Source: an uncultured Dehalococcoidia bacterium
GTDB lineage: Bacteria; Chloroflexota; Dehalococcoidia; SZUA-161
Assembly: GCA_964574685.1 (NCBI GenBank)
Contig: CAZNOI010000003.1
Span: forward strand, 53,408-117,407
Length of the DNA stretch: 64,000 nt
Direction: 5' to 3'
Below the pieces are notes generated by a model. The model was not told where the DNA came from and searched no databases. It worked only from the letters and a program-made list of their open reading frames with translations. Of the stretch, positions 34,812 through 64,000 are shown piece by piece (position 1 is the first letter of the stretch; the number at the start of each line of letters is the position of its first letter). Made by a program: the position numbers and the translations under genes.

Positions 34812-34820
34812 CGACTGCAG

Positions 34821-38298: not shown

Positions 38299-38387
38299 CT
38301 GAGGGACGACCTCCCGTTGCAGGTTAGCCGACACCGAACTGCAAGTCAAGGTCAGGGGCGCTCCGCCGCCGGAGAAGGAGGACTGGA

Positions 38388-40190: not shown

Positions 40191-40408
40191 TGAGCACGCC
40201 GTCATAGCAGGCGATGTCTGTGGGCACGCTCGTGTTGAGCCTGAAGGCAGCTTTGCCGTGCAGGACCACAAGCGGCGGGTTCTCCCACGAAGCGTAGTCC
40301 CCACCAGCCTTGTGCAGCAGCAGGGCGCGGCCCGTGTAGTCCTCCGCCGCACCATACAGTCTCATTCTGGCATCCCCGGTGCCGATCCTCCTCAGGGTGC
40401 CGGAGACA

Positions 40409-40963: not shown

Positions 40964-41463
40964 ATCACGCGGTAGACTAACCTCGCCCGGCTGCTGCTGG
41001 TAACTGGGGCCCTGCCCTGGTCGGCCTCATCGCAGGAGATGACGAGCCTGATCTCGCAGGGGACTGCATCAAAGCCCGGCTGCGACGGGAAGCAGCCACC
41101 CCTCGCTCTCCCAACGTAGGCTGTCCCGATGTTCGTCTCCAGTACCGCCTCGTGCAGGTCCACCCAGGGACCGTCGCCGCTGCGCGCCTGCCATTTCCAG
41201 GTCATGTCCGCAGTCGGTGATGACACGGCTCTGAACTCGCCGACCAGGTCGAACTCGGCCCGGAGAATCCTGCCTTCAACGAGGGGATCGATGGTCTTCG
41301 AGAAGACGATGGTCTCGACTCCGGCGTCGGCCGTCGTTACCTCATCCGAGACCTGGACGCCGCTCTGCGTCAGCGCTCCCGACACCAGCCTGTCCTCGAA
41401 GTCCACCAGGGGGTCGAGGCGCACAGGCAGCTCCTGCGGGCCCGAGACGATGCCTTTGACCAT
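40960..41463 (-). CDS. hypothetical protein
   Basis: 167-aa ORF, first of a three-ORF minus-strand set (41463->40174). No recognisable motifs. Confidence 0.35.
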   Translation of the reverse strand: MVKGIVSGPQELPVRLDPLVDFEDRLVSGALTQSGVQVSDEVTTADAGVETIVFSKTIDPLVEGRILRAEFDLVGEFRAVSSPTADMTWKWQARSGDGPWVDLHEAVLETNIGTAYVGRARGGCFPSQPGFDAVPCEIRLVISCDEADQGRAPVTSSSRARLVYRVI

Positions 41464-41662
41464 TACTGCCTCCTTGGAACATTAGTTCTCATCGAGCCTA
41501 GGGCATGCTCTACGGCAGTGTCAAGGGAGAAGGGTCGTTCCAGCGCCACGTGTCGCCGGAACGACCCGGTACTATCGTCCGCGACGCCGGCTGCCAAAGT
41601 ACCTTGACGGAGTGTACGTTCGCCCCATATCCGGCTGCGCGACGCGACAATAGCATGTAGCT

Positions 41663-43309: not shown

Positions 43310-43365
43310 ACGTCATGACAACCGAGGCTTACCGGTCAATCGTCTTGCGCTTCTCTCGCTGCCTG

Positions 43366-46793: not shown

Positions 46794-46807
46794 TTGAGTG
46801 CATCCTG

Positions 46808-48007: not shown

Positions 48008-48091
48008 TAGGAAGCCGGAATCTGACCGGAGGCGTCGCCATCGGACTTGTGCCTTCTCCGGCGCTGCAACTGCCGCGGATGTACTTCGGGA

Positions 48092-48844
48092 CTAAGTCTG
48101 GTCAGTGGATTTCCCGGCTACCGGTGGTCGCCAGAATATCAGCCCCAGTATTGTTCTCAGGTGGTCGTAGCCTGCCTGGAAGCTGCCGAGCTTGGCCTTG
48201 CCCACCCTTGGGCGGTACTCGATGGGTATCTCCTTGACGCGAAGCCTCATCCGTGCGGCCTTGATCGCTATCTCGGGCTCGATGGCGAAGCCGCACGAGT
48301 TCACCGCCATGGCTTCCAGGTGCTCCTTGCGGATGCCGTACAGCCCGGTCGAGTAGTCCGACGCCGCGAATCCGTAGATGCACCGGATCATGTGCTGAAA
48401 GACGCAGTTGCCGAACCGGTTCAGGGGCGGGATGTTGCTCCTGCCGCGCCTGCGGGATGCGTAGACAACGTCACACGTTTCGAGGGCCTCGTACATCATG
48501 GGTATGGCCTCCGCAGGGTACGTGTCGTCCGCATCTATCAGGATGACGTAGTCACCACGCGCCTGCCTGACTCCCGACTTCAGGGCCTCGCCCTTTCCCA
48601 GGTTCCGAGGGTGGCTGATGAGCCTGCAGGGAAAGTCAGACGCGACATCGACCGTCCGGTCACTCGACCCGTCATCGACGACGAGCACCTCGCAGACGCC
48701 GTCGACGGCCCTGTGTATCTTCTCAAGGATTACCGGGAGGCCGGTCTCCTCGTTGTAGGCGGGGACGACGATACTGGCCACTACTCGCGTGGCGGTGGTT
48801 GTCGAGCCCTCGAGAAGGGACCCGGCCAGTACCTTCTGAGTCAT
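48092..48844 (-). CDS. glycosyltransferase family 2 (polyprenyl-phosphate sugar transferase-like)
   Basis: IVVPAYNEE...VLVVDDGSSDRT...ILIDADDTYP (DXD) motifs. Confidence 0.8.
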   Translation of the reverse strand: MTQKVLAGSLLEGSTTTATRVVASIVVPAYNEETGLPVILEKIHRAVDGVCEVLVVDDGSSDRTVDVASDFPCRLISHPRNLGKGEALKSGVRQARGDYVILIDADDTYPAEAIPMMYEALETCDVVYASRRRGRSNIPPLNRFGNCVFQHMIRCIYGFAASDYSTGLYGIRKEHLEAMAVNSCGFAIEPEIAIKAARMRLRVKEIPIEYRPRVGKAKLGSFQAGYDHLRTILGLIFWRPPVAGKSTDQT

Positions 48845-48859: not shown

Positions 48860-49531
48860 CTATTTGGGTGCCCTCACCCGCCTCACACCGACATAGCCGA
48901 CCAGGCCCAGAAGACCGAGCCCCAGCAGGGCAACGGTAGCGACCTCCGGCGTTGGATAGCCGGGGTCCATATGCGGCGAACGGAGCGATGACTCTCCGTC
49001 AGTGCTTATCATGTGTGGATTCGTGTCCGTGTTGCAGACCTCGAGCGCCAGGTAGTCCCCCTGAAGAATGGTCGCGGACTCCGCCTGAAGCTCGATGATA
49101 ACGGCATTGTAGCCCTGGTCGAAGGTAAGGAAGGTCTCGGTGGTCGTCGGTATGTCATACCACTGCTCGAGATCGGTATCCCAGCCCCCTATGTGCACTT
49201 CCCACTCGTCGAGGGACTCGGGATCAGGCTCCCCGATCTCGTACTCATCGATCCTCAGCTCGATGACCCATGCCCCGCCGGGGAACGTGACGTCGCACAC
49301 GGCCGCGTTCTCCGCGAGCCATGTCTTGCACCCACCGGCGCCGATTGTTACCCAGCCCGCCTGAGCGCCCCATGCCTTCTCCATGACCGAGAACGGGGAA
49401 CCGCAACTGTGCGGCGCGCCGTCCAGGTACCACAACTGGGACGCGGTTGCGCCGACCGCCGCGGGCATCGCGACCAGTATCGCGGCTATGAGCAGGGTAG
49501 CTGCAAGTACCCCGGACCGGGACCACTTCAT
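48860..49531 (-). CDS. secreted PEP-CTERM protein
   Basis: Signal peptide MKWSRSGVLAATLLIAAILVAMPAAVGA. C-terminus PTPEVATVALLGLGLLGLVGYVGVRRVRAPK (PEP motif, TM helix, Arg-rich tail). RBS GGAGG before ATG 49531. Confidence 0.6.
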   Translation of the reverse strand: MKWSRSGVLAATLLIAAILVAMPAAVGATASQLWYLDGAPHSCGSPFSVMEKAWGAQAGWVTIGAGGCKTWLAENAAVCDVTFPGGAWVIELRIDEYEIGEPDPESLDEWEVHIGGWDTDLEQWYDIPTTTETFLTFDQGYNAVIIELQAESATILQGDYLALEVCNTDTNPHMISTDGESSLRSPHMDPGYPTPEVATVALLGLGLLGLVGYVGVRRVRAPK

Positions 49532-49621
49532 TACGTACCTCCAAACGGCGCATGGTTTGGGTGCAACCCACGGAGCGAACCACGCACACGTAAGCATACA
49601 AGGTCGCACACAACCGTTGCC

Positions 49622-49650
49622 ATTAAAGCACACGGGTAAACTGCTGTCAA
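49622..49650 (-). promoter_or_regulatory. sigma70-like promoter (TTGACA-17-TTTAAT) for the PEP-CTERM gene
   Basis: Reverse complement of 49622-49650 reads TTGACAgcagtttacccgtgtgcTTTAAT. Confidence 0.4.
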
Positions 49651-49746: not shown

Positions 49747-50454
49747 GTGCCTAGCTGCATGTCTGCTGACAGTATGGACAGGGTCTCTTTGCTGGGCCAG
49801 GTCCCCCTTTTCGCTTCCCTGCAGTCCGAATGGCTGGATGAGCTGGCCGCCAGTCTGACTGCCAGGAACTACAAGCGCGGCGAGACCATATTTCACAAGG
49901 ACGACCCCGGCGATTCGCTCTACATAATCGCCGAAGGCCAGGTGAAGATAGCTACGACGTCGCTGGAAGGCGAAGAGGTGATACTGGCCATTCTGACGAC
50001 CGGCGATTTCTTCGGCGAGCTGTCGCTGCTCGACAGCAGGCCGAGGTCGGCCGGTGCCATGGCTATGGAGGCAACGCAGGCGTTTACTCTTCACCGCTCC
50101 GACCTGCTGGAGGCGATCGGGAGACGCCCGGAGATGGTGAGCGGCATACTTGCGGCCCTTAGTGACCGCCTTCGGCGAGCGGACCTGCTGCTGGAGGACG
50201 CTATCTTCCTGGATTTGCCTTCGCGGCTGGCCAAGCGCCTCCTTGAGTTGGGCGAGAGGCACGGTATCGAGACGGAGAAGGGGCTGGAGATCGAGCTGCG
50301 CCTGACGCAGCAGGACCTTGCGAATTTTGTCGGCGCCAGCCGTGTCGCCGTTAACAAGCTGCTCGGGCAGTTCCAGGATCGGGGCCTCATAATGCTGGAC
50401 AAGCATAAGCTAATCATCCTGAAGGGCGAAGAACTGAGGAAGCAGGTCCAGTGA
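49747..50454 (+). CDS. Crp/Fnr-family transcriptional regulator
   Basis: cNMP-binding beta-roll (GDFFGELSLLD..RSA) and C-terminal HTH (RLTQQDLANFVGASRVAVNKLL). Confidence 0.8.
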   Translation: MPSCMSADSMDRVSLLGQVPLFASLQSEWLDELAASLTARNYKRGETIFHKDDPGDSLYIIAEGQVKIATTSLEGEEVILAILTTGDFFGELSLLDSRPRSAGAMAMEATQAFTLHRSDLLEAIGRRPEMVSGILAALSDRLRRADLLLEDAIFLDLPSRLAKRLLELGERHGIETEKGLEIELRLTQQDLANFVGASRVAVNKLLGQFQDRGLIMLDKHKLIILKGEELRKQVQ

Positions 50455-50503: not shown

Positions 50504-51409
50504 GTGTTCAAGAGAATCCTGGTTCCACTGGACGGTTCGGAGCTGGCGGAGATCGCCCTGCCCTACGCCGAGGACCTGGCGGGGGCGTTCGGAGCGGAGA
50601 TAGTCCTTCTTCATGTGCTCGAATCCGACGATTCAGAGTACAAGCGCATGCACGAGTCGTACCTTCAGGAGGCGGCTGAGCGCGTGACGGACTCGGTGCG
50701 GAAGCGGGCCGCCGGCGACCAGGCAGGCGCGGTAAGGGTCGAAGCCGTCATCGCGGAAGGCCACCCGGCCGAGCAGATCATCGACCGTGCGGACGATGAG
50801 TCCGTCGATCTCATAGCCATGGCGACACACGGGCGGTCGGGAGTCCGCAGATGGGTAATGGGCAGCGTGGCGGACAAGGTAGTCTCAGCAACGCAAGCGC
50901 CGGTCACGCTGGTCAAGGCAAAGGCCGAAGGGACTGAGCGCAGGGAGACGCCATACGGGAGCCTGCTCGTGCCGCTTGACGGATCTCCGGAGGCGGAAAC
51001 GGTGCTCTCATATGTCGAGGCGCTCGGAACGCGAATGGGCAGCCGTGTCGTTCTGCTGAGCGTGGTGCCCGGCGTGTCGGCGGTGTACGCGTTCCCGGGC
51101 GAGACCGTGCAGTTTCCCTACACCGAGGCCGATGTCCAGATCATGAAGACCGACGCCGAGACCTATCTCGCAAGCGTCGCGGAGAGGCTCGAGGAGAAAG
51201 GTCTCAGGCCCGAGTCCAGGGTTGTCGCAGGGGACACTGCTGAGGAGATAATACTCACCGCCGAGAGAGCGCATGCGGATCTCGTCGCAATGTCGACGCA
51301 CGGACGTTCGGGAGTGAGTCGCTGGGCTTTTGGCAGTGTTGCCGACAAGGTGCTGAGGGGAGTGGACAGCCCGCTGTTCCTGGTGAGGACAGCATCCACC
51401 GGCTCATGA
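50504..51409 (+). CDS. tandem universal stress protein (UspA) domains
   Basis: Two copies of ILVPLDGS...A...LLHV...G..SVADKV pattern. Confidence 0.8.
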   Translation: MFKRILVPLDGSELAEIALPYAEDLAGAFGAEIVLLHVLESDDSEYKRMHESYLQEAAERVTDSVRKRAAGDQAGAVRVEAVIAEGHPAEQIIDRADDESVDLIAMATHGRSGVRRWVMGSVADKVVSATQAPVTLVKAKAEGTERRETPYGSLLVPLDGSPEAETVLSYVEALGTRMGSRVVLLSVVPGVSAVYAFPGETVQFPYTEADVQIMKTDAETYLASVAERLEEKGLRPESRVVAGDTAEEIILTAERAHADLVAMSTHGRSGVSRWAFGSVADKVLRGVDSPLFLVRTASTGS

Positions 51410-51410
51410 A

Positions 51411-52355
51411 TCAGGTGCTGGCGGCCTGGTCCAACTCCTGAGTGCCGAGAGCCTTGAGCTCGTCGATATCGTTCATGCTCAGGGCCTTGGCTTTCCGCGC
51501 TATCCTCTTGATGAGCTTCGTGAGGACTATGCCTGGGCCGACCTCCACGAAGGTTGTCACGCCGGCTTCAGTCATGTACTCCACTGAGGGCTGCCACCTG
51601 ACGCAACTGCAGAGCTGTTGAAGCAGTTCGTCCTTGACCTCCTCGACCGTAGTCATCGGCTTCGCAGACGCATTGGCGATCACGGGTAGCTGAGGCGGGC
51701 GGAAGCTTGTGCTCTCAACTGCGCGGGCCATGCCTTCTACCGCCGGACGCATCAACTCTGAATGGAAGGCTCCGCTGACTTCCAGGGCCACTGTGCCTAC
51801 CGCACCTCGCGCCTGCGAGAGGTCCATGGCGTTGGCAACGGCTTCCCTGGTTCCACTGACAACGAGCTGACCTGGGCAGTTGATGTTAGCGACCTGGGCG
51901 CCGGTCTCGGTGCAGACATCTGCGACGGTCTCGGCGTCAAGGCCGATGATGGCCGCCATAGCGCCGGGCTCCATTTCTCCGGACAATTGCATCAGACGGC
52001 CCCGCTCCCTGACGAGCTGCAGCGCATCAACGAAGTCGAGGACGTTGGCTGCAACCAGCGCTGTGTATTCGCCCAGGCTGTGCCCGGCAAGGAAGTCGGC
52101 CTTCCTGCCGCCGTTCAGTTGCCGGGTGGCCATCATATATGCGACGCTGGCGGTCAGGATGGCGGGCTGGGAGTTTATGGTCTGGCGCAGCTCCTCCGCT
52201 GGACCTTCGAAGCAGAGACGCGAGAGGGGAAAGCCCAGGACCTCATCCGCTGCCTTGAAGACACGCCTGGCCTCCGGCGAGGACTCACATAGTCCGAGGC
52301 ACATGCCCACTTCCTGTGACCCCTGGCCGGGAAAGACGTAAGCTATCTTGGACAT
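51411..52355 (-). CDS. fabD: malonyl-CoA:ACP transacylase
   Basis: YVFPGQGSQ..GM and GHSLGEYTALVAA active site. Confidence 0.85.
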   Translation of the reverse strand: MSKIAYVFPGQGSQEVGMCLGLCESSPEARRVFKAADEVLGFPLSRLCFEGPAEELRQTINSQPAILTASVAYMMATRQLNGGRKADFLAGHSLGEYTALVAANVLDFVDALQLVRERGRLMQLSGEMEPGAMAAIIGLDAETVADVCTETGAQVANINCPGQLVVSGTREAVANAMDLSQARGAVGTVALEVSGAFHSELMRPAVEGMARAVESTSFRPPQLPVIANASAKPMTTVEEVKDELLQQLCSCVRWQPSVEYMTEAGVTTFVEVGPGIVLTKLIKRIARKAKALSMNDIDELKALGTQELDQAAST

Positions 52356-52972
52356 GTCAGTATCTCCTGCTTCCGGCGCACTGCCCCGTCAACTCCGTTG
52401 GGAAGTTGATCGATGACAGTCCATTCGATTTCGCTGTCGCCCGCCACCACCGAGACCATATGGCCGCTATGGTGAAGATGTCTAACGACGTAGGCGACAC
52501 CGTCGTGTTCCAGCAACGTGCGCCGGTCATCCGGCATGGCCTTCACCCGGCACGCCCGCAAGCCGCCAATGCCAACGCCGACCGCCTTGAGCGCGGCCTC
52601 CTTTGCAGTCCACACCCTGAAGAAGGCCGGCCAGGACTTGCCACCCGCGATTTCCCACTCTTCCTCGGACGCCGTCAGATCGAACAGGTACCGGCGACGA
52701 GGGGCCACCTTCTCAACATCTATGCCGACTCTGGAAAGGGCTGCAACCGCCGCAACGCATCCGGGCTTGTGTGACACAGACCAGTAGATTCCGCTCGATG
52801 CTACAGGCACATCGTCGTCGTCCTTCTGCAGGGGATGCAACTCGAAACCGCTCTTGGCTGCGCTCAGCCTCAACGCCACCCTCGAAAGCCTGCTGAGACG
52901 TTGAACACGCTCCTTGCCCGGCGCGGACCGTTCGGCCGTCGGAATGGACATTACGACGGGATGCAACACCAT
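52343..52972 (-). CDS. Sfp-type 4'-phosphopantetheinyl transferase
   Basis: GIDVEKV... and FFRVWTAKEAALKAVGVG (W/FxxKEAxxK) motifs. Start overlaps fabD. Confidence 0.7.
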   Translation of the reverse strand: MVLHPVVMSIPTAERSAPGKERVQRLSRLSRVALRLSAAKSGFELHPLQKDDDDVPVASSGIYWSVSHKPGCVAAVAALSRVGIDVEKVAPRRRYLFDLTASEEEWEIAGGKSWPAFFRVWTAKEAALKAVGVGIGGLRACRVKAMPDDRRTLLEHDGVAYVVRHLHHSGHMVSVVAGDSEIEWTVIDQLPNGVDGAVRRKQEILTCPR

Positions 52973-52980
52973 GGCGCGGA

Positions 52981-53781
52981 TCAGTCCCTCGTCACCTTGA
53001 ATACGATATCCTGGTCGAAGTAGTTCGCGGACATGCCGGCGTCCACGATTATGCTCTGGGCGTTGATGCCACTTGATCTGTCACTCAGCAGGAACGTTGC
53101 CACGTTTGCCACTTCCCTCGTGGCCAGCGACTTCTTTCGGAGCGTCGCTTTCTCAGCGTAGAGATAGTAGTCGAGGTAGCCGGGTATCCCCGCTGATGCC
53201 GAGGTCTTCAGCAGACCGGAATTCACCGAATTGAACCTGACGTTGGAGAAGCGGCTGAACGACTTCGCCAGGAAGACCACCGACGAGTCCAGGGCTGCCT
53301 TCACCGGGGCCATATACCCGTACGGCTCGGCCGCCATTCTTGTGGTGGATATGGATATGGTCACGACCGAGGCATTCTGGTCCAGCATGTCTTTGAATGC
53401 ATTCGCGATGTTGAGGAACGAATAGCAGGAGATCTCCACTGCCTGCAGGAAGTCCTTTCGCTTCACCTCGTGGAACGGCTTCAGACCTTCAGAGTAGTTG
53501 GCGAAGGCAAGCGAGTGAACGAAGCCATGGAACTTGTCGTATCTGGATTGGAGGTCGCGTGCCAGCCGGTCTATCTCCTCCTCGCGCTCTACGTCGCATG
53601 TGTAGATGTCGGCGTCGGGTAGTATCCTGGCTACGTTTTCCTTCACTGCTTCATTCTGGACGACCTGCACGATCTCGGCGCCTGCCTCGGCAAGCACCTC
53701 GGTGATGGCATAGGCCACACTCTTCTTGTTGGCCACGCCGAATACCACGTATCGTCGTCCTTCTATTCCCAGGAAATCCAT
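52981..53781 (-). CDS. fabI: enoyl-ACP reductase (FabI/FabL-like SDR)
   Basis: [16 protein letters not shown] (Gly-rich NAD site), Tyr/Lys catalytic pattern; length 266 aa. Confidence 0.7.
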
Positions 53782-53807
53782 TAGCCTGCCTCTCTGATGC
53801 TCCGTCG

Positions 53808-54230
53808 TCAGCCCTCAACGAGGCTGACCGCGAATTCCACCGTAACTGCGGTCTTGCCGTCGGACCTGGCGCTGCCCTTCATGAAGAAGGCGTTGCTGAC
53901 CCGTTCCACAAGCTCGGCTTCGAGTTCGAGCGTGGCACCGGGCTTCACCATGTTCTTGAATCTGGCGTTGGTCACCCGTGTCAGTACCGGCGTACCACCG
54001 CCTCCGTATTCTATGACTCCGGAAAGCAGTATGGCCCCTGTCTGGAATATCGACTCGCAGATTAGTACGCCCGGCATTATCGGATTGCCGGGGTAGTGAC
54101 CTTTGAAGAACTCCTCTTCCGGTCTGACCTGTCTCGTTGCCTTGATCTTCGACTCTGTCAACTCGACAACTTCATCCACGAACAGGAAGGGTGGTCTGTG
54201 AGGTATAGCCTTCAGCACCTGATCATCCAT
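53808..54230 (-). CDS. fabZ: 3-hydroxyacyl-ACP dehydratase
   Basis: [13 protein letters not shown]...[26 protein letters not shown] hotdog motif. Confidence 0.8.
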
Positions 54231-54232
54231 CT

Positions 54233-54973
54233 CTAGAGACCTCCCGTTACCTCCAGCACCGAGCCGGTGACGTATGAGGCCTCCTTCGACGCGAGGAACA
54301 GGACGCAGGCTGCGACCTCCTCCGGTTTCCCGAAGCGCTTCAAGGGTACCTGGCTCGTGTACTGGTCACGCTGCTCCTTCGGCAGGTCCTCGATGAGTTC
54401 GGTGGCAATGAAGCCGGGAGAGACGCAGTTGACCGTTATCCCGCGCCGGGCCACCTCCTTCGAAAGCGACTTCGTGAGCGCTACCATCCCGGCCTTGGCC
54501 GCAGCGTAGTTGCCCTGTCCCTCGAACCCATATTTGCCCGACGGGGAAGTAACATTGATGATGCGACCATAGCGCTTTCTCGACAGGCTCTGCACTCCGA
54601 ACTTGCACATGTAGAAGACGCCGCTGAGGTTTGTCTCGATCACATCGTGCCAGTCCGATTCCTGCATCATCCCGACTATTGCGTCCTTGCGTATGCCAGC
54701 ATTGTTCACAATGATCTCGAATCCCTCGTAGCTCTTCCCAATGTGGTCGAAGAAAGCCTCGACGTCCGCCTGCCTGGATACGTCACACTTCTGCACGTCT
54801 ATCATGTCCCCATGCTGGCTGTTCTCGTCCTTGAACCTGGCGGCGGCGGCCTCATTCGACGAATACGTTACGATCACCCTCGCGCCCTCGCGGAGGAAGC
54901 ATTCGGCAATGCTCCTGCCGATACCCCTGGTGCCCCCGGTTATGATGGCCGTCTGGCCCTGGAAATCAAGCAT
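54233..54973 (-). CDS. fabG: 3-oxoacyl-ACP reductase
   Basis: AIITGGTRGIGRSIA..., NAG, YAAAKAG SDR motifs. Confidence 0.8.
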   Translation of the reverse strand: MLDFQGQTAIITGGTRGIGRSIAECFLREGARVIVTYSSNEAAAARFKDENSQHGDMIDVQKCDVSRQADVEAFFDHIGKSYEGFEIIVNNAGIRKDAIVGMMQESDWHDVIETNLSGVFYMCKFGVQSLSRKRYGRIINVTSPSGKYGFEGQGNYAAAKAGMVALTKSLSKEVARRGITVNCVSPGFIATELIEDLPKEQRDQYTSQVPLKRFGKPEEVAACVLFLASKEASYVTGSVLEVTGGL

Positions 54974-54995
54974 CCGATGCCTCCCTGGGACTGGA

Positions 54996-56402
54996 TTAGC
55001 CTCTCAGGTACTTGTCCACGTCGTTGGAAACGATGACTCCGTAGTTGGCTGCGCCCAGCCAACCCGACATGATTATGCCCACCGAGCCGGTGTGGAACAG
55101 GCCTGGCATGACCTTAGGCAGGTCCATGCTTACCTTCAGCCCCTCGAACTTCGTGCCAAATGACGCCCCACCCTCATGCAGCGTATATCGGTGGAACGTC
55201 TTCGGAGTGGCCGCCTCGACGTAATCGATCTTGTCCCGGACTCCGGGTATGTACTTGTCCAGCGCATCGACCGTGGTCTCTATCAGGTACTGCTTGTCCT
55301 TCTTGTACTGCTCGTCCGGGAGGAAGGCCCAGTCCTCGTATCGGGCATTGGTGGACGCAACTACCGAGTACATGTTGTGTCCCGGTCGTGTTGAGGGATA
55401 GTAGACCGAGAAGGTCCTGCTGGTGACGTCCTTACTCAGCAGCATCTCGGTGTCGAACTTCGGCGCAGTTGAGGTGAACAGAAGGTCGCCGCAGTAGTCG
55501 AAGCCTTCTCCCTTCTTGATACCCATGTAGACCTGGCAACTGCTGTTGTTGATGCGCACATTCCTCGATTCCTCCACGAAGTCATATGGGAAGTGCTCAT
55601 CACCCACCAGCTTGTGTATGGTCGTCTTCAGGTTGCCGTTGGAGACTACGGCCTTGCTCTTTATCGGTGTTCCGTTGGCGACAACCCCCGCCGTCTTGCC
55701 GCCGTCCACCATAATCCTGTCCACCAGAGCCCTTGTGCGGATATCGACCCCGTTCTTGCGCAGCTCGTCCGCCATTCTTCCTATGAACAGGTCTGTGCCG
55801 CCCTGCACGGTATAGACACCCTTGCTCATGAAGTTCGAGAAAACGATACCGTAGCTGATGGCGGGATCGTCGAGCGTCGACCCGTTCGCGTATGTGATGG
55901 GCTCCATAAGAAGGCGCACCACGTCATCACGGCCGGGGAAGTACTTCTCGAACAACTCGCGGGCAGTCATCGACTGGTCATCATAGAAGTTCATATCCCT
56001 CGCGGTGTCAAAGAAGTCGTCGATGTTCTGCTCGGGTACCTTGAAGTACTCCTTCAGCAGCCTGGTGAAGTCCTGCCGGTCGAACGTGGTCGTGAAGGCG
56101 AACTGGGGGTTATCGAACCTGATACCCTTGAGCTGGACTATCATGTCCGCGATTTCCTGGTTCCAGTACTTGCGGCAAGTCTTGATCATGCCGACCGGGA
56201 AGCCGTGCAGCGAAACGTCGAATATGTGGTTGCCCCTTCTCTTGAACCAGGTGGCGAGTCCGCCAAGCTGGTGATGGTGCTCCAGCAACAGCACCGAGTG
56301 GCCGTTGCGCGCAAGCATGTTCGCCGATGTCAGTCCCGCGAGACCGCTGCCTATCACGATTGCATCGTATTCTGGTCGAAGGTTCTCCAGCTTGTCGCCC
56401 AT
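54996..56402 (-). CDS. FAD-dependent oxidoreductase of the phytoene desaturase (CrtI/RetSat) family, paralog 1
   Basis: [37 protein letters not shown] dinucleotide-binding motif. About 470 aa with CrtI-like C-terminus. Confidence 0.7.
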
Positions 56403-56420
56403 TCGTATCTCTCCGATTGA

Positions 56421-57812
56421 CTAGTCCTTTTGCAGGATGTGATAGTTCGCCATGGATATGCCGCTCAGCATCGCCCCGACGATGCCGAGGAACCCCTGGT
56501 CTGTACCACAGACGAACAGGTTCTTCAGGTGCGTACGGCCATCCTTGACCTTGTCCGGCGTTCCGTACACGGCCCCGTTGAGGTGACCGGTATACCTGCG
56601 TATTGTCCTTGGAGTGAACATGTCGGTGTAGACGATAGAGTCACGGAAGTCCGGCACGAATTGTACCGCCGCTTCCAGTGATCTTTCAATCCAGGCCGAC
56701 TTCTGAGCCCGGTACTCATCTTCATCCAGTTCAGCCCATCTCTCGTAGTTGGCCATGTTGGTCACGCGAATCAGCGGTTCCGGCAGCGGCTGATCGTACT
56801 GGAAGTTGTTGGGGCAGCATATCACGCCGCTCGAGATATCCACCATTTCCCGGGGCTTCCTGTAAGTGAACCTCTCGCTTGTGCTGAAGAACGTGATCGT
56901 CCTATCGTAGCCGAGGTCGGACATCTCGCGGTTGAGCACGAATATGAATTCGACGAAGGAGAGCTGGCCGGGCTTCCGGTCATCGGCATCGGCATGCTGT
57001 CCCGGCAGAAGCTCCATGGTCTCAACATAACCGGCTGAGGAAAGCACGTACTTCGCGGTAACTTCCTCGCCGCTGTCCAGCAGTAGGGACTCGACACGAT
57101 CGCCTGATGACCGCATTTCCTTGACGCCCTGCTTTAGCCGGAGTTCGCCCCCGCTTTCCCTGTACTTGTCTACCAGCACATCGAGTATCTGCCTTACGCC
57201 CGCGTGGGGCCTGGCGAAACCCTCGCAGAATATGCTGCTGAACATTATCACGAATTGCCCAAACTCCATATCGTCTTCCTGGGCATTCCCGTAATACATG
57301 AGAGGACAGAAGATCATGTCAACCAGCAGCGGATCCGTGATGACGGACTCCACAACCTCCCGTGCTGATCTGGGCCTGGCGTCGAGGGCCAGCGCGTCGT
57401 GCTCGCCCACCGCCTGCAGCAGCTTCTGGAAGTTGTCCTTCTGCTTCGGAAAACCCTCGTTGACCTCTTGAATCAGGAAGTCCAACTCGTTCGTGAACCG
57501 CAGGGTCTTAACGGGGAACGCAATCGCAGACATCCTCTGCTGGCACAGGTCAAAGTCATCGGGCTTCAGCTTGAGCTGCCGCAACAGCTTCGGAAGCGGC
57601 GTCGACTTGACGCCCCTGGGCACGTAGTTCGTCATAGCGTGAAGGCCGACGTCGAACTTGTGCCCGTCCCGGCTGTAGAACGAGTTGAGTCCGCCCACCC
57701 GATGATGTCTCTCCAGAACGCAGACCTTCTTGCCGTAATAGGCAAGCCTGATTCCTGCGGCCAGACCGGACATTCCTGCGCCGATTATCGCGACATCGTA
57801 GTCCATTGACAC
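56421..57812 (-). CDS. FAD-dependent oxidoreductase of the phytoene desaturase (CrtI/RetSat) family, paralog 2
   Basis: YDVAIIGAGMSGLAAGIRLAYYGKKVCVLERHHRVGG; 463 aa. Confidence 0.7.
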   Translation of the reverse strand: MSMDYDVAIIGAGMSGLAAGIRLAYYGKKVCVLERHHRVGGLNSFYSRDGHKFDVGLHAMTNYVPRGVKSTPLPKLLRQLKLKPDDFDLCQQRMSAIAFPVKTLRFTNELDFLIQEVNEGFPKQKDNFQKLLQAVGEHDALALDARPRSAREVVESVITDPLLVDMIFCPLMYYGNAQEDDMEFGQFVIMFSSIFCEGFARPHAGVRQILDVLVDKYRESGGELRLKQGVKEMRSSGDRVESLLLDSGEEVTAKYVLSSAGYVETMELLPGQHADADDRKPGQLSFVEFIFVLNREMSDLGYDRTITFFSTSERFTYRKPREMVDISSGVICCPNNFQYDQPLPEPLIRVTNMANYERWAELDEDEYRAQKSAWIERSLEAAVQFVPDFRDSIVYTDMFTPRTIRRYTGHLNGAVYGTPDKVKDGRTHLKNLFVCGTDQGFLGIVGAMLSGISMANYHILQKD

Positions 57813-57920
57813 TCGCTTGGGTGCACTTCATCCCCTCTCGATTGATGGAATAGGCATCTCAACCGGCCGAATGGCGGCGAGGGGATGGAGCAATGGTCTG
57901 TTCCGGGCGGCTTGTGTCGG

Positions 57921-58172
57921 TTAGATATCCTTCATATGCGGTTCGAGATAAGCCACCGCGCCGTCCAGCGTCGAGAGCTTCATGTAGTCCTCTTCCGGCA
58001 CGGTAACGTTGTACCGCTTCCGCAGCTCCATGATCATGTCGAGGAAGTCCATCGAGTCCATCTCGATCTGGTCACGGATTCGGACATCACCCTTGAGCTG
58101 GCTGAGGTCCTCATCCGGTACGATTTCGCTCATCACTTCGACGATCATGGCTCTGATCTCGTCTGGCTTCAT
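57921..58172 (-). CDS. acyl carrier protein
   Basis: 83 aa, IEMDSMDFLDMIMEL phosphopantetheine attachment motif (DSM in place of the usual DSL). Confidence 0.7.
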   Translation of the reverse strand: MKPDEIRAMIVEVMSEIVPDEDLSQLKGDVRIRDQIEMDSMDFLDMIMELRKRYNVTVPEEDYMKLSTLDGAVAYLEPHMKDI

Positions 58173-58220
58173 TTGTACCTACCTTTCTATCTGGCTTGAC
58201 AGAACCGAGCTGGCGCCGAA

Positions 58221-59459
58221 CTACTCGGCGAACCGCTTCACCACAACGACCGAGTTGATTCCAAGCATTCCGAACGAGTTGTTCAGCAGGTAGTCTACCT
58301 TCTTGACCTTCCTCGGTTCTCCTATGACCAGTCCCTTCAGGTTGCACTCAGGATCGAGGTTGTCGACATTGATTGTATGATGAACCAGCAGGTCATTGAA
58401 TGAGGGCAGGTTTCCTGCGAGTTCCAGCGCACCCGCCGCGCCCATTGTGTGTCCTATGAAGCTCTTGGTGTTGTTGACAAGTACCTCGGAGTCCGCACCG
58501 AACGTCTCGAGTATGGCGCGGCACTCCTGGGGGTCGCCCATCGGGGTTCCCGTCGCATGGGTGTTCACAACGTCCACGTCCGCCGGCTTCAGGCCCGCCT
58601 TTTTCAGCGCGAGGACCATGCACTCGGCCTGTCTCTCCCAGTTGGGCAGTATGAAATCGAGGGCATCCGAGTTGCTCGCGTAGCTGACGACCTCCCCGTA
58701 TATGCGCGCCCCTCTTGCCACCGCGTCTTCAAGCCTTTCTAGGACGTAGACACAGCCGCCCTCTGACACCACTATGCCGTTCCGGTCCCGATCGAACGGA
58801 CGGCTTGCCTTCCCGGGGTCCTCGTGGCTTGCCAGGGCGCCCTCGTTGCGGAAGGCGGCGAATACACCGAAAGTCCCCGGCGTCTCGGAAATGCCGCCCG
58901 CCAGGGCAAGATCGATCTCACCCAGCAGAAGCATCTGGTATCCCTGGATAAGCCCCAGGTTGCCCGCCGCACAGGCTCCGCCCAGCGTGTAGTGGGGCCC
59001 GGTGATGCCCATATTTATCGTGACCTCGCCCGCCGGGCTGTTCGCCACGGTCCTCGGATTGTGGTGATGTGACCAGAAGTCTACGTTGTAGTCGTACTGC
59101 TTGATATTCCAGATCTCGTGCTCCGTCTCGACGTTCCCGTGCTCCGTTATGCCCAGGAAGATGCCCGTTCTCGCCTTGTCGATAGTGTCCGGGGTCAGGC
59201 CGGCGTCACCCAGGGCCTCGTGGGAGCAGTAGATGGCAATAGAGCCCGCGCGCGTCCCGCGGCGCAGCTCCTTCTTCTTCTGATGCTTGAGTGGATCGTA
59301 GTCGCATACTCCAGATATCATCGGTCCCATGTAGTGCGTGTCTATAGTGCTCACACCGGACTTGCCCGCGAGCAGGTTCTGCCTGTACTCCGCCAGGTCG
59401 TTGCCGTTAGGCGCTGTTAGCCCGACGCCGGTTATAACAATCCTTCTGTCATGAATCAT
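58221..59459 (-). CDS. fabF: beta-ketoacyl-ACP synthase I/II
   Basis: IVITGVGLTAPNG..., active-site Cys context (GACAAGNLGL), HATGTPMGD, GHTMGAAG. Confidence 0.85.
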   Translation of the reverse strand: MIHDRRIVITGVGLTAPNGNDLAEYRQNLLAGKSGVSTIDTHYMGPMISGVCDYDPLKHQKKKELRRGTRAGSIAIYCSHEALGDAGLTPDTIDKARTGIFLGITEHGNVETEHEIWNIKQYDYNVDFWSHHHNPRTVANSPAGEVTINMGITGPHYTLGGACAAGNLGLIQGYQMLLLGEIDLALAGGISETPGTFGVFAAFRNEGALASHEDPGKASRPFDRDRNGIVVSEGGCVYVLERLEDAVARGARIYGEVVSYASNSDALDFILPNWERQAECMVLALKKAGLKPADVDVVNTHATGTPMGDPQECRAILETFGADSEVLVNNTKSFIGHTMGAAGALELAGNLPSFNDLLVHHTINVDNLDPECNLKGLVIGEPRKVKKVDYLLNNSFGMLGINSVVVVKRFAE

Positions 59460-59492
59460 TGTAGCTGTCGCCCCCGTGTGGGATTCTGAGGA

Positions 59493-60542
59493 CTACCATT
59501 CGACGCCAAGCATAATACAGGAGAGCCCGCTGCCTATTCCCAGCATGGCCACGTTGTCTCCAGGCTCCAGTTGGCCCTCGCTGAGGGCAATGGCGAGAGT
59601 AATCGGGAGCGATACCGGGCCGATGTTGCCCAGATACTCTACACTGGAGTAGCCTTTCGACGGGTCGAGCTTCAGCGTGTCGAACAGCATCCTCTGGTGC
59701 ACTATGGTGACCTGATGGCAGAAGACCTTGTCTACGTCCGCGTTGTGCCAGTGGAGTTCCCTCTTGAGCGATCTCCAGGTGTCTCCAGCCAAGTCCAGGC
59801 CGTTCAGCAGGATGCCTTCGGAGTCGGTCTTCATCAAAGGCCTTGCGTTCTCCTCAAAGAAATAGGTGTCGCTCGTTATGCGACACAGGCCGTTGTGTTG
59901 GGAAGCAGTGCGTATCGTGCCGCCCATCACCTTGTGGCCCGACTTCGATATCGAGGAGTGGGCCAGCACTGCGGCGACTGCGCCCGAGCCGAGAGTCAGC
60001 GATGCCAGCGACGGCTTCAGTCTCTCCCGGTCCATGGTGGTATCTTTGACAATGTCCTGGATGGTGCATTCGGTGATGTGGCGGCTGCTCTCACTTGCCA
60101 CTACGATGCCGGCCTTCACCTGCCCAAGCTCTATCATGTTGGCCAGGGTTACCATGCCGTTCACGAAACCAAGGCATGCGTTCGATATGTCGAAGATGGT
60201 GCCTGTAGGCGGCAGGCCGACGAGGTCATGCACCAGGAACGCCGTAGCCGGTTCGAGGAAATCACGGCTCAACGAAGTGTGGAGCAGGCATTCGATATCC
60301 TCCTTGGGTATGCCCGAGTTCTGTATGGCCCGCTCCGCCGCGACAGCGCTCGCCTGACTCGGCGCCATGCCTTCGTTCCAGAACCGCCGCTCCCGGATGC
60401 CCGTCATCATCTCGAGGCGTCCGTAGGGCAGCTTCAGGCGTTCATAGACGGGCGCCAGCCGCTGCTCCAGACTCAAGGACGTGACGACTTGAGGCGGGAG
60501 TTCGTAGCCGAAGGCCTCAATGCAGACGTTCTTGTAAAGCAC
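59493..60542 (-). CDS. fabH: beta-ketoacyl-ACP synthase III-like
   Basis: FDISNACLGF (active Cys) and C-terminal ...GNIGPVSLPITL.. / AMLGIGSGLSC. Confidence 0.75.
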   Translation of the reverse strand: MLYKNVCIEAFGYELPPQVVTSLSLEQRLAPVYERLKLPYGRLEMMTGIRERRFWNEGMAPSQASAVAAERAIQNSGIPKEDIECLLHTSLSRDFLEPATAFLVHDLVGLPPTGTIFDISNACLGFVNGMVTLANMIELGQVKAGIVVASESSRHITECTIQDIVKDTTMDRERLKPSLASLTLGSGAVAAVLAHSSISKSGHKVMGGTIRTASQHNGLCRITSDTYFFEENARPLMKTDSEGILLNGLDLAGDTWRSLKRELHWHNADVDKVFCHQVTIVHQRMLFDTLKLDPSKGYSSVEYLGNIGPVSLPITLAIALSEGQLEPGDNVAMLGIGSGLSCIMLGVEW

Positions 60543-60683
60543 CCATCAACTCCTCAGTCTGCACAGTCCCACCCGACTGAACGCACGCAGCATCGTTCGC
60601 GCTCGTATCCTGCCTAGCTTTGCTCCATCGACCGCGTCGCGCTCTGATGCGGCATGCGGCTTGAGGCTGTTCAAAGGCCGGGG

Positions 60684-61163
60684 TCACCTCTTGGGAGGAT
60701 TGCCCTGCCCCCTCGATAACAGGGTCGGAATATGGAATTTGAGCTTGAGCTTGGACCAGCTATCCTGGGAGTCCTCGGGGATTATGCGGTCCGGGATGTA
60801 CTTGCCGACCCCGGCGACTACCGTGGAGAACTTCCTGGAGCTGGCGGCAGAATCCGGCACCATTTCATCTGCAGCGGTAATCAACGACGAGACGACCTTG
60901 GGTGGAACGAATCTCTCTACTTCCTCGAACACCGCGTCAATCGCCTTCGAAGGTATGTGCTTGTCGAGGACGTTCATGGAGAACAAAAGAACCCTGTCCG
61001 GTATATACCGGTCAACGATCTTGACCTGAAGCAGAATCAGCCGTTCCGAGATGAACCGTACGGGAGGCTCAAACCGGTAGCCCTTCCGGAACAACTGAAG
61101 GCCCCGCGTTACAACAAACCTGACGGGAGGCTCGAAAGACGAGGTCCTGTGTTCCTCTACCAT
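60684..61163 (-). CDS. hypothetical protein with internal short repeats
   Basis: FEPPVRF x2 and (R/K)YIPDR-like x3 repeats. No known motif. Confidence 0.35.
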   Translation of the reverse strand: MVEEHRTSSFEPPVRFVVTRGLQLFRKGYRFEPPVRFISERLILLQVKIVDRYIPDRVLLFSMNVLDKHIPSKAIDAVFEEVERFVPPKVVSSLITAADEMVPDSAASSRKFSTVVAGVGKYIPDRIIPEDSQDSWSKLKLKFHIPTLLSRGQGNPPKR

Positions 61164-61400
61164 TGCCCCTCAATCACCATATAGTCCGCCAGTCTACACT
61201 CAAATGGTAAGTTAAAACTATCACACTGGCAAGCCACTTTGTCAAGAGCTACGCACCTCACTATCCCTGTCGTTTCCTACATACATCGGTGGGGAGGCCT
61301 CTGACGGAACGCGACAGGCCGCACCGGGAATGAGTCTCCAGCAGCGTACTCGTATTGCACGCAGGTCGTGCAGGTATTGCGTGCAGAAGCTCAGCACCCT

Positions 61401-62717
61401 TCATCGGTTGAACGAGAAGTCAGCCTCATCGAACTCCTTGGAGCGATAGCGCTCCCACCTGGGGAAGACTTCTCGATAGATGCCCAGGCGGATTCCTGCA
61501 AGCTTCAGGGCTCTCATGGCAAGCATTCTCGCCTGTCTGGGCCGGCTCAGCAGGGCCTTCGCCAGAGCAATGATGGTCTTGGTGAGGGAAGGCGGGCAGC
61601 CCTGAATCCTGGTGGAGTTCTGGAGACCCCTGTTCGCCCTGATGGAGCAGTTCCCGTACAGAACGGTTCGGGGCGTGTCCTTCTCGGCGTGCAGTTCGGA
61701 GCCGTACAGCAGCTCGGCATAGGCGAAGTCCATCCGGCGATTATCCTTCGCCAGAATCGATAGGGCCAGTGCCAGCGTGGCTGCGCACCCGCAGCACAGA
61801 GACTGGCCCGGGGTCGGCGCGGACAGCCCTGTGACGCCCGACGGCGCGAGCAGTTCTTCCTGTGGATGAAACTGCCATTCGAGGTGCTCACTTACCGATT
61901 GCAGTTCCTCGCCCCGTATGTCTATCGCGCTAAGGTCGAACGATCGGTCGTGCCGCTCGGCGTACTCGCGCAGGTACCGTACCTCGGCTGGATCTACGCC
62001 CAGTACGGCTGAGCCCACCACATCGCACTCGAAAACGTCCGGGCCGGCGATGATGAGGTCCTTGCGGTGGGCAATCCCCGCAAGCGTCTCGGGTCCCTTC
62101 TCCAGCATGTATATGCCGTCCACTATCTCGAGGTCGGTTCTGACAACCTCGTTGAGGTAGGATATGGCGCGGTCCAGATGGCCTGAGGTGTGGAACTTCT
62201 TCTTGGAGCCCTTGCTCAAGCAGCCCTTCAAGTTCTTGAACCCGAGTGATACCATGGTCTGGAAGTGAGTCTTCAGGGTGGGGATGTTGATGAGGAAGTC
62301 CGTTTCGAGGGCTGGCTCCGCTATCTGCGCCTTCAGTCCGCCGATGTCAACCTGCCTCGAAGGCTGCTCGTTGAAATCGGCCAGTTTGGCCCCGTGTTTG
62401 CGGGCCACGCGGTCGATACCGGTGCCTTTGAAGCCGTGCTTCGTGTAGGGTTCAAGCTCCTCGAAGATGCCGATGATGGCCCCCTCGCCTATGGTGATGT
62501 CGGAGCAGCCATACTCACGCAGAAGGGTCAGGACCATGTCCAGCAAAGTCGAGGTAGTGACCATGCCGTAGGGAGGAGTGATGGGGTGCCGGAAGCAGTT
62601 ATTTGGCTTCACCAGCACCCTGTCGGTGGGCTTGAGCCGCCCGAACCCGTCGCACAGCTCGACGGCCTTGCGGAGTGAATTCAGCGAGCCGTCATATTTG
62701 ACTATCGATACCGTCAT
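61401..62717 (-). CDS. DUF362-family protein (paralog of 17297-18322)
   Basis: RVLVKPNNCF...ITIGEGA... start region, Cys cluster near C-terminus (CCGCA). Confidence 0.4.
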   Translation of the reverse strand: MTVSIVKYDGSLNSLRKAVELCDGFGRLKPTDRVLVKPNNCFRHPITPPYGMVTTSTLLDMVLTLLREYGCSDITIGEGAIIGIFEELEPYTKHGFKGTGIDRVARKHGAKLADFNEQPSRQVDIGGLKAQIAEPALETDFLINIPTLKTHFQTMVSLGFKNLKGCLSKGSKKKFHTSGHLDRAISYLNEVVRTDLEIVDGIYMLEKGPETLAGIAHRKDLIIAGPDVFECDVVGSAVLGVDPAEVRYLREYAERHDRSFDLSAIDIRGEELQSVSEHLEWQFHPQEELLAPSGVTGLSAPTPGQSLCCGCAATLALALSILAKDNRRMDFAYAELLYGSELHAEKDTPRTVLYGNCSIRANRGLQNSTRIQGCPPSLTKTIIALAKALLSRPRQARMLAMRALKLAGIRLGIYREVFPRWERYRSKEFDEADFSFNR

Positions 62718-64000
62718 TCGACTTCGGCGCCGACGGGATAGTGCCTTATCTCATCGACGAGCATTCTCAGGAACTCATGTGCCTTCTCATCGGAGAACAT
62801 GGCTTCGCGGTAGGTGAGCGCCACATTCAGCTTCCTGTTGTATATGTTAACGCAAATGCACAGGCCCATGGGAGTCACCACCGGAGCCGAGCCCACGAAG
62901 TTCAGTATCCTTGCGTCCCCGAGCCTGGTCAGCGCAGCTTCTTCCGAGTTCGGCTTTGGCCACACGACCCCGATATTGGTCATGATGATCGTGTTGACGT
63001 ATATGCGGCTGACAATCAGAAGCCGGCAGACCCACCTCATCAGGAAGAGGGGGAACTGAGAGCAAAGGTAGAAGTAGTATATCAGAGAGAAGGCTTTCCG
63101 GTTTCTCGCTGCCTCCCGCGTGGCCGCGTTCACATTGCGAAGCAGGCGAACAGGGTCCCGCCGGTCTTCGCGAGATGTCGAGGGGGATATCCAGGATGCT
63201 TGGTTCGATACCACGTTCCGGTATCCCCTGGGCCTCATGTTGACGGGCGTCATGATGTACACCCTCCCGCTTCGACGTCCATGTGCCGTGTTCCATTTCT
63301 CCACAGTCCTGTGACATGCTGCGAGAATGATGTCGTTCAGCATGACATCGGCCTGGCGGGCCTTTGACTCGATGGCCGAAAGCTCGTCCGGCGATATGGT
63401 CTCGAAGCGGTGTCGCAGACGCCTGGACGGTCCCGACCGGTCGTGATACACCCTGGTCGGCGGTGAGAATGCGTCCACGACGAAACGCCTGAACAGCGCC
63501 GCAACGATCTTGCGATAGTAGCCCTTGACCCTGCCTCGTTGAGCGTTGGCGAACTCGACCAGCTCATCGCCGGTGCGAGTGATACGTATCTCCTGAGACC
63601 CCGGGCTAACCCCCGCAGTGCCGTTGCTGTACAGCTCGATGACGCTCTTTATGAAGAGCGTGGCACGGACCCCGTCCGTCGATGAGTGGTGGAAGCTGAA
63701 GACCAGCAGGGTTTGATCGCTGTCCCATTGCAGCAGAAGCACCCGCAGGGGAGGCACCTCCCTTGGGTCCATCGGCTGGTTCATCCAGTCGAAGAGGGTG
63801 CTCTCATCTCTTGTGTGAATCAGGCCTTGGACTGTGAGAAGACCGTCTCTAGACGGTGTCTGCGTCTCCCTGTACGTCCTGAGGATGTCGCATCTAATGA
63901 GAGTGTTAGTAACCGGGAATATCTCCTGTGCCTGTTCCAGTGCATGTTCCAGCCTTGCAGCGTCGACCTTCCCTTGCAGGGTAAGGATCGCGTGGATAAC
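62714..64000 (-). CDS. condensation-domain/WS-DGAT/PapA5-like acyltransferase (HHxxxDG); 5' end outside the window
   Basis: FSFHHSSTDG catalytic motif. The frame stays open upstream of the listed Met to the window edge (…ILTLQGKVDAARLEHALEQAQEIFPVTNTLIRCDIL…). Confidence 0.5.
   Translation of the reverse strand, partial: VIHAILTLQGKVDAARLEHALEQAQEIFPVTNTLIRCDILRTYRETQTPSRDGLLTVQGLIHTRDESTLFDWMNQPMDPREVPPLRVLLLQWDSDQTLLVFSFHHSSTDGVRATLFIKSVIELYSNGTAGVSPGSQEIRITRTGDELVEFANAQRGRVKGYYRKIVAALFRRFVVDAFSPPTRVYHDRSGPSRRLRHRFETISPDELSAIESKARQADVMLNDIILAACHRTVEKWNTAHGRRSGRVYIMTPVNMRPRGYRNVVSNQASWISPSTSREDRRDPVRLLRNVNAATREAARNRKAFSLIYYFYLCSQFPLFLMRWVCRLLIVSRIYVNTIIMTNIGVVWPKPNSEEAALTRLGDARILNFVGSAPVVTPMGLCICVNIYNRKLNVALTYREAMFSDEKAHEFLRMLVDEIRHYPVGAEVE

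Follow-up and report, generated by a model that had tools for sequence, protein, structure and literature searches.

A Dehalococcoidia operon with an OleA-family thiolase and two CrtI-fold flavoproteins is one version of a widespread, putative type II lipid-synthase module

The stretch of DNA analyzed here, referred to as the window, comprises 64,000 nucleotides (positions 53,408 to 117,407 of contig CAZNOI010000003.1) from an uncultured Dehalococcoidia bacterium, and from 51411 to its end it carries 13 consecutive minus-strand open reading frames (ORFs). Eleven of these, at 51411-61163, form an operon that encodes, in order of transcription, a repeat protein, an OleA-family thiolase, FabF, an acyl carrier protein (ACP), two flavoproteins termed Crt2 and Crt1, FabG, FabZ, FabI, an Sfp-type 4′-phosphopantetheinyl transferase (PPTase) and FabD. 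We interpret this operon as the Dehalococcoidia version of a widespread, uncharacterized type II lipid-synthase module. On balance, we favor a reading in which a dedicated type II synthase makes a modified, probably cis-unsaturated acyl-ACP, two of which are then joined head to head by OleA. Our ORF map contains all 13 genes at the positions given in an initial annotation of the sequence, and Pfam and NCBIfam searches bear out 12 of its 13 family calls; its interpretation of the locus as a specialized lipid pathway is supported in part, as described below. The named homologues of the window's proteins come from Dehalococcoidia metagenome-assembled genomes (MAGs).

The one family call that changed is central to the interpretation. 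The protein encoded at 59493-60542 (minus strand, like all genes of the operon), previously labeled FabH, matches PF08541 and PF08545 and scores 436 bits against NF006720 (cut-off 285), which we take to be the OleA model, versus 98.6 bits against the fabH model TIGR00747 (cut-off 292). In a PDB sequence search, its top matches were structures of X. campestris OleA (3ROW, 3S21, 4KU3, 5VXF and others), aligned over the full length at 212 bits, whereas FabH structures reached at most 73 bits. Cys143, His285, Asn315 and Glu117 are kept in an alignment of the window thiolase with six relatives, and the window's FLEPATA aligns with YLEPSTA of X. campestris OleA, a motif kept in all copies examined. 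Glu117, within the [LIVYF]-E-P motif, is an OleA-specific base that enables non-decarboxylative head-to-head condensation (PMC8180931). Based on the model scores, the PDB matches and the conserved catalytic residues, Glu117 among them, we assign this protein to the OleA family of thiolases, predicted to catalyze a head-to-head Claisen condensation.

To place the operon among its relatives, we used Crt1 as an anchor. A scan of species-representative genomes yielded at least 597 confirmed Crt1 loci, of which 80 were retained; together with three further loci (L001, L082 and L085) and the window, these give the 84 loci that we tabulated, with synteny assessed by tblastn. Crt1 is 64-77% identical in the 80 retained loci, which come from Dehalococcoidia, Nitrospinota, Nitrospirales, Planctomycetota (labeled Phycisphaerae, Pirellulales, Gimesia, Planctomicrobium and Fuerstiella) and Muiribacteriota. 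The genes adjoining Crt1 are FabZ in 53 of the 84 loci, Crt2 (upstream) in 43, FabI in 39 and ACP in 33, followed by FabG in 30, FabF in 27 and the PPTase in 23, and a PPTase comes after FabI in 23 of all 86 loci tabulated; the order of the module is FabF-ACP-Crt2-Crt1-(FabG)-FabZ-FabI-(PPTase). The repeat protein and FabD, as well as the DUF362 protein and acyltransferase encoded upstream of the operon, are confined to Dehalococcoidia-type loci in this table. Outside Dehalococcoidia, neither FabD nor a KAS III was found within 10 kb of the module, and the Planctomycetota loci also lack FabG, so that the module must rely on another fatty acid synthase there. In Nitrospinaceae and one planctomycete, the flanks hold ispF, a U32 peptidase, an ion channel and a BamB-like protein, with no extra conserved partner. 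Sequence searches with Crt1 returned more than 8000 homologous sequence clusters, the top 120 being 76-90% identical; a library-wide search delimited a narrow Crt1 family with 203 representatives below 1e-30.

In several of these lineages the flavoprotein-containing core, a cross-phylum module, is tied to oleBCD. The most complete arrangement is in a Nitrospirales MAG (L020), in which OleA and then OleB-, OleC- and OleD-like genes lie directly upstream of FabF-ACP-Crt2-Crt1-FabG-FabZ-FabI: the OleB-like protein is a haloalkane-dehalogenase-type hydrolase, the best specific model for the AMP-ligase is olefin beta-lactone synthetase (599 bits), and the best model for the 3-beta-HSD-type reductase is OleD (392 bits). 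Among the Planctomycetota, L041, L046 and L060 have OleC and OleD directly upstream of FabF, with OleB also present downstream of FabI in L046; L054 has OleD upstream of FabF, and in both L054 and L066 an OleA gene lies just downstream of FabI. In the more distant L085 (Crt1 39% identical), Crt1-FabG-FabZ-FabI lies approximately 6 kb from oleABCD. The window thiolase is 46-53% identical to thiolases of the ole-linked loci L020 and L054, the L020 homologue being at 53%. A genome of several megabases usually contains just one ole cluster, and therefore the repeated placement of ole genes within 10 kb of the module in separate lineages is unlikely to be due to chance, although this is a rough argument.

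This linkage also bears on a different role for the thiolase, in which it would serve as a KAS III-type primer that feeds medium or long acyl-CoA into very-long-chain extension, with no head-to-head condensation. M. tuberculosis FabH works in just this way, feeding in preformed medium- or long-chain acyl-CoA, and the gene order would suit such a function: in Dehalococcoidia, OleA is found directly upstream of FabF wherever the locus sequence reaches upstream of FabF, a [repeat protein-OleA-FabF] unit is doubled in L001, L002 and L005, and oleBCD was not found nearby. The ACP and FabF also show a weak affinity to the AcpM and KasA/B models. We nevertheless consider a priming role improbable, given that Glu117, the base for non-decarboxylative condensation, is kept in every copy, that the FabH models score far under their cut-offs, and that the protein is 46-53% identical to thiolases that sit beside OleB, OleC and OleD (L020) or in a locus with OleD (L054).

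Crt1 (54996-56402) and Crt2 (56421-57812; PF01593 and PF13450) are paralogues that are 26% identical in pairwise alignment. An AlphaFold 2 (AF2) model has the CrtI-type three-domain FAD fold, and structure-based alignment puts Crt1 at 18-19% identity to CrtI and CrtD; PDB sequence searches with Crt1 and Crt2 gave matches confined to the FAD-binding N-terminus. Against crtI_fam (TIGR02734) the two proteins score 79.7 and 81.2 bits (the latter for Crt2) relative to a cut-off of 238, and against CrtD, CrtISO and other carotenoid equivalogs approximately 100 bits relative to cut-offs of 550-590. Their best NCBIfam match is a carotenoid isomerase model, again below its cut-off. Crt1 and Crt2 thus share the CrtI fold but are outside every characterized carotenoid family.

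In support of the reading in the initial annotation, the flavoproteins are integral to the cluster. They are 77% (Crt1) and 73% (Crt2) identical to their counterparts in L001, equal to or above most of the Fab enzymes (FabF 79%, ACP 81%, FabG 75%, FabZ 71%, FabD 68%, FabI 66% and PPTase 50%), which implies that they are core components under strong purifying selection. In addition, one relative (P0122; L082 2209-4086, JGI metagenome 3300038404) is a natural Crt1-FabZ fusion of 625 amino acids, after which come a FabI-like gene and a radical-SAM gene. The fusion is direct evidence that Crt1 acts together with the dehydratase, presumably on ACP-bound intermediates.

These results leave little room for a pigment or carotenoid-type pathway, whether an aryl-polyene, something flexirubin-like, or CrtI-like enzymes of isoprenoid metabolism that merely happen to be located in the cluster. 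Such a pathway would account for the CrtI/CrtD fold and for the 259 bits that FabG scores on the flexirubin FlxB model, but that score is under the cut-off of 340, every carotenoid equivalog fails, and no phytoene/squalene synthase or cyclase was seen among the annotated neighbors in the window or the relatives examined, in a non-exhaustive scan. The clusters have a conserved enoyl reductase and either a single FabF or doubled OleA-FabF units; no ketosynthase/chain-length-factor (KS/CLF) pair, aryl-activating or adenylating enzyme, ammonia-lyase or ApeK-type thioesterase was found in them. The flavoproteins also co-vary with the Fab genes across phyla and in one case are fused to FabZ, and related phytoene-desaturase-like (PD-like) anammox enzymes gave no lycopene in E. 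coli (PMC4790861). We therefore regard a pigment pathway as very improbable, and an affinity with aryl-polyene or flexirubin clusters, a comparison suggested in the initial annotation, is not supported.

The remaining enzymes make up a complete elongation system, but one that departs in part from the canonical fatty acid synthase of type II (FAS-II). FabD, the malonyl-CoA:ACP transacylase encoded by the last gene (51411-52355; PF00698, E=7e-41), scores 331 bits against TIGR00128 (cut-off 261), and the 3-hydroxyacyl-ACP dehydratase FabZ (53808-54230; PF07977, E=1e-22) scores 119 bits against NF000582 (cut-off 113). The 3-oxoacyl-ACP reductase FabG (54233-54973; PF13561, E=2e-62) is borderline, at 294.6 versus 297.75 for TIGR01830 and 255 versus 222 for NF009466. 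Below their cut-offs are the ACP (57921-58172; PF00550, E=5e-9), which has the DSM phosphopantetheine site but scores 32.7 on TIGR00517 (cut-off 70.45); the elongating FabF-type ketosynthase (58221-59459; PF00109 and PF02801), with 306 on TIGR03150 (cut-off 494); and the FabI-like enoyl-ACP reductase (52981-53781; PF13561, E=2e-57), which falls under every NCBIfam FabI cut-off (best 177 bits versus 362). There is no true FabH. The catalytic residues are in place, with the Cys-His-His triad of FabF intact in an alignment with T. thermophilus FabF (1J3N) and the Tyr-x6-Lys of FabI intact in an alignment with B. subtilis FabI (3OIF), and FabI is 55-71% identical across phyla. The 209-residue PPTase (52343-52972), whose gene overlaps that of FabD by 13 bp, has the ACPS domain (PF01648, E=4e-13, 49.7 bits), a weak 4PPT_N match and HetI as its best NCBIfam match, in line with the Sfp-type assignment made earlier.

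Only some Dehalococcoidia loci include the FabD gene in the cluster, and the FabD homologues among the 120 matches listed are 61-76% identical. In one Dehalococcoidia genome labeled complete (CP070667.1; L083, 9693-10948), FabD is preceded by a truncated 96-residue PPTase and dnaE, and the remainder of the cluster is missing; in L084, whose FabD is identical to that of L083, FabI-PPTase-FabD is intact, and the L083 arrangement is thus probably a rearrangement or an assembly mis-join.

The serious contender from these data is that the operon is the housekeeping FAS-II of this Dehalococcoidia lineage, with the flavoproteins providing O2-independent unsaturation, the role of FabA/FabB, FabM or FabX elsewhere, and the OleA-like protein acting as a primer or on a side branch. 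The enzyme set is complete, with FabD and FabZ over their equivalog cut-offs; the operon is syntenic and 65-80% conserved in very many Dehalococcoidia; in relatives the cluster is surrounded by core genes (serA, asd and YqeY in L008; lexA, rpsT and ftsZ in L084); and no second fab gene was found in the 64-kb window. We consider this explanation rather unlikely all the same. The scores of ACP, FabF and FabI, which agree with the initial view that this is not plain housekeeping FAS-II, speak against it, as do the private Sfp-type PPTase, the presence of an OleA with Glu117 in the KAS III slot, and the association of the same core with ole genes in other phyla. Furthermore, FabD is absent from the L008, L010 and L012 clusters, and therefore at least one fab gene must lie elsewhere in those genomes. 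In one planctomycete, K. stuttgartiensis, a canonical FAS-II set (kustd1386-1391) has been described (PMC4790861).

Several observations do weigh against a dedicated synthase feeding OleA. With a complete FAS-II and class-wide synteny, the operon could be, or could double as, the housekeeping synthase. The oleB, oleC and oleD genes are absent from the window and from every Dehalococcoidia locus, in Nitrospina loci no ole gene lies within 10 kb of the module, and approximately 27 Planctomycetaceae loci have Crt1 alone.

If the module is a dedicated synthase coupled to OleA, as we favor, its chemistry can be outlined as follows, although we infer the substrates, the final product and the reactions that Crt1 and Crt2 catalyze. 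The PPTase would activate the private ACP, FabD would load it with malonate, and the chain would be elongated by FabF, FabG, FabZ and FabI. Crt1 and Crt2 would act on ACP-bound intermediates of the elongation cycle, most likely isomerizing or dehydrogenating enoyl or acyl intermediates, such that cis double bonds outlast elongation. OleA would then join two finished acyl thioesters head to head to form a 2-alkyl-3-oxo acid, from which a long-chain ketone, olefin or ester lipid would derive. The acyltransferase and the DUF362 protein, discussed below, may form an accessory pair that tailors or transfers the product.

OleA takes acyl-ACP in vivo and, when combined with a polyunsaturated fatty acid synthase in the absence of OleBCD, gives a 31:8 ketone (PMC6463001). 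Desulfotalea contains C31:8 and C31:9 hydrocarbons without having pfa genes, and C31:9 has been reported in Planctomycetes (PMC2649909). These two findings are our reason for proposing that the flavoproteins install or preserve double bonds in chains that OleA then condenses. The polyunsaturated or otherwise modified acyl chain guessed at in the initial annotation fits both the identification of OleA and the ole-linked cross-phylum module.

Among known systems, OleABCD plus Pfa in Shewanella and Photobacterium likewise combines a dedicated carrier-protein synthase that has its own Sfp-type PPTase with an OleA that joins two chains; the OleA catalytic residues are kept here, and oleBCD is linked in the Nitrospirales and Planctomycetota relatives. 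The synthase, however, is dissociated (type II) here whereas Pfa is a multidomain polyketide synthase: FabZ and FabI replace the FabA-like dehydratase of Pfa and PfaD, the two CrtI-fold flavoproteins have no counterpart in Pfa, and the Dehalococcoidia version has no linked oleBCD. The rhizobial AcpXL and mycobacterial AcpM/FAS-II systems are similar in that a special long chain (27-OH-C28 acid and meromycolate, respectively) is built alongside housekeeping synthesis on a dedicated ACP that has FabZ, FabF and reductases of its own, but they belong to other phyla and are not known to have flavoproteins or OleA. For the flavoproteins themselves, CrtISO, CrtD and the P. acnes polyenoic fatty-acid isomerase (2B9W) provide chemical precedent for flavin-catalyzed migration or insertion of double bonds in long chains, although the identities are only 11-19%, all family cut-offs are failed, and the context here is fatty-acid synthesis rather than carotenoid metabolism.

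The closest precedent in the literature that we searched appears to be a hypothesis from 2009, which is reportedly older than knowledge of the ole genes. It drew attention to FAS-II clusters that contain PD-like genes, in Kuenenia stuttgartiensis and Desulfotalea psychrophila, and proposed a role for them in O2-independent polyunsaturation (PMC2649909). Those clusters resemble ours in placing a private ACP, FabZ and FabF beside amine-oxidase/CrtI-like flavoproteins (PMC2649909, PMC4790861, PMC10139942). The anammox cluster, however, also has radical-SAM/B12 enzymes and a KS/CLF-like FabF pair, neither of which is in the window operon; it is reported to occur exclusively in ladderane producers, unlike this module; and the window's FabZ and ACP have closer solved relatives than amxFabZ (7QV0, 8AYC) and amxACP (7AUF). 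With these structural matches and no radical-SAM gene in the operon, we rejected the ladderane cluster as being the same system. The anammox proteins kuste3336 and kuste3607 are reported to be 31-33% identical to CrtI, compared with 18-19% by structure alignment for Crt1; these are different measures, and a subfamily difference is only suggested. Our searches for literature on this module in Dehalococcoidia, Planctomycetes and COG1233 turned up no papers other than those on anammox bacteria and Desulfotalea, and the Crt1/Crt2 module, its ole linkage and the OleA-containing Dehalococcoidia operon appear to be undescribed in the literature searched.

A more specific and more doubtful proposal, which we put forward tentatively, is that the module is a dissociated type II synthase of polyunsaturated chains in which the two CrtISO-like flavoenzymes perform the isomerizations of the Pfa FabA-like domains, both trans-to-cis and positional, or an O2-independent desaturation. 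The module would then be the long-sought origin of polyunsaturated precursors for C31:9-type hydrocarbons in pfa-less Planctomycetes and Desulfotalea, and Dehalococcoidia, with OleA and a WS/DGAT-like transferase but no OleBCD, would be expected to make undescribed long-chain polyunsaturated ketone or ester lipids.

Should the broader reading of a dedicated synthase coupled to OleA hold, it would offer candidates for the genes by which polyunsaturated C31:9 chains arise without a Pfa synthase, a problem unsolved since 2009-2010, and a function for a very abundant pair of “phytoene-dehydrogenase-like” proteins in several phyla. It would also predict new lipids in Dehalococcoidia, which are hard to culture and, with thousands of sequence clusters, abundant in public metagenome data. 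At approximately 10 kb, the operon is compact and brings together the carrier, activator, loader, full elongation cycle, flavoproteins and OleA, making it unusually suited to heterologous expression, with possible interest for biological routes to long-chain hydrocarbons.

The layout of the genes helps to define the operon's boundaries. From FabD through the thiolase, adjoining genes overlap by as much as 13 bp or stand at most 108 bp apart, and the only long gaps, of 141 bp and 237 bp, are found on either side of the repeat-protein gene. The 237-bp gap upstream of that gene contains promoter-like sites on the minus strand (61204-61245), including the best sigma-70-like site of the region (61245-61217, TTGACA-17-GATAGT, with 10 of 12 matches and a TG extension); these are consensus matches only. 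From the tight junctions, the position of the long gaps and the promoter-like site, the transcription unit probably runs from the repeat protein through FabD, and the acyltransferase-DUF362 pair probably forms a unit of its own upstream.

The first gene of the operon (60684-61163) encodes the 159-residue repeat protein, which gave no match in Pfam and NCBIfam searches. It contains two copies of FEPPVRF and four of (R/K)(Y/H)IP(D/S), is 60% identical to its L001 orthologue, and in the tabulated loci is always directly upstream of OleA. In the loci with a tandem duplication (L001, L002 and L005), the order is OleA_a-FabF_a-ACP and then OleA_b-FabF_b-Crt2 onward; the window OleA and FabF resemble the L001-type “a” copies (73% and 79%) more than they do the “b” copies (64% and 70%). 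L001 has repeat-protein copies at 2170-2646 and 5905-6099, the latter a 64-residue remnant before the second OleA-FabF pair, from which it follows that the duplicated unit was [repeat protein-OleA-FabF].

Upstream of the operon, 61401-62717 (minus strand) encodes a long-form DUF362 protein of 438 residues (PF04015, E=6e-36). It has 578 homologues, the 120 listed being 65-74% identical. Together with the acyltransferase it shows linkage to the cluster in the window, L003, L007, L008, L012 and L039, although the position and orientation of its gene vary; its AF2 model is of low confidence (pLDDT 49). Its start is overlapped by the stop codon of the final gene (62714-64000, minus strand), a stand-alone condensation-fold O-acyltransferase with the HHxxxDG motif FHHSSTDG, whose frame remains open to base 64000 and whose N-terminus lies beyond the window. 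The partial protein scores 37.8 bits against PF00668, and a full-length orthologue of 468 residues in L008 scores 68.4 bits against PF00668 and 47.9 bits against the WS/DGAT model TIGR02946, far under the cut-off of 310. The condensation-domain acyltransferase of the initial annotation is thus present, as a distant WS/DGAT-like protein that falls outside the WS/DGAT subfamily proper, and of the Dehalococcoidia loci whose flanks are long enough about half have it. PDB sequence searches with the DUF362 protein and the acyltransferase gave no matches, and exact-sequence look-ups of the window DUF362 and Crt1 proteins returned no record. In L008, radical-SAM, second short DUF362 and DUF1847 genes (17390-19981) lie beside the DUF362-acyltransferase pair.

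Small unrelated genes have been inserted within the module in four relatives: L020 (8565-9840), L055 (1749-3166), L057 and L058 (11496-12163). Judged by N-terminal sequence alone, some look like mobile-element or toxin-type genes. The L020 insertion falls between Crt2 and Crt1, hinting at two sub-blocks, FabF-ACP-Crt2 and Crt1-FabG-FabZ-FabI; the second of these stands alone in L085.

On the FabD side of the operon, a Crp regulator gene (49747-50454, plus strand) is followed by a tandem Usp gene (50504-51409, plus strand), and both are convergent with FabD. The initial annotation suggested that they might regulate the operon, but they are absent beside the cluster in L001 and L084, the two relatives in which the FabD-side neighbors were read; with the linkage not conserved, we rejected them as regulators. 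Farther away, the sole RNA gene detected in the window is a tRNA-Asn (GTT) at 427-501 (plus strand), and a single ORF of 3423 codons (22490-32761, plus strand) lies upstream of a cohesin-domain protein gene. The latter belongs to a cell-surface/exopolysaccharide locus (32849-48844) that also encodes two DUF3485 (EpsI-like) proteins, the exosortase EpsH (35641-36513), an Rce1-like protease, a polysaccharide flippase, a beta-helix protein, a phosphodiesterase, and GT4 and GT2 glycosyltransferases. It is followed by an ORF of 257 residues (48860-49633) that has only a faint VPDSG-CTERM-like match (E=0.08).

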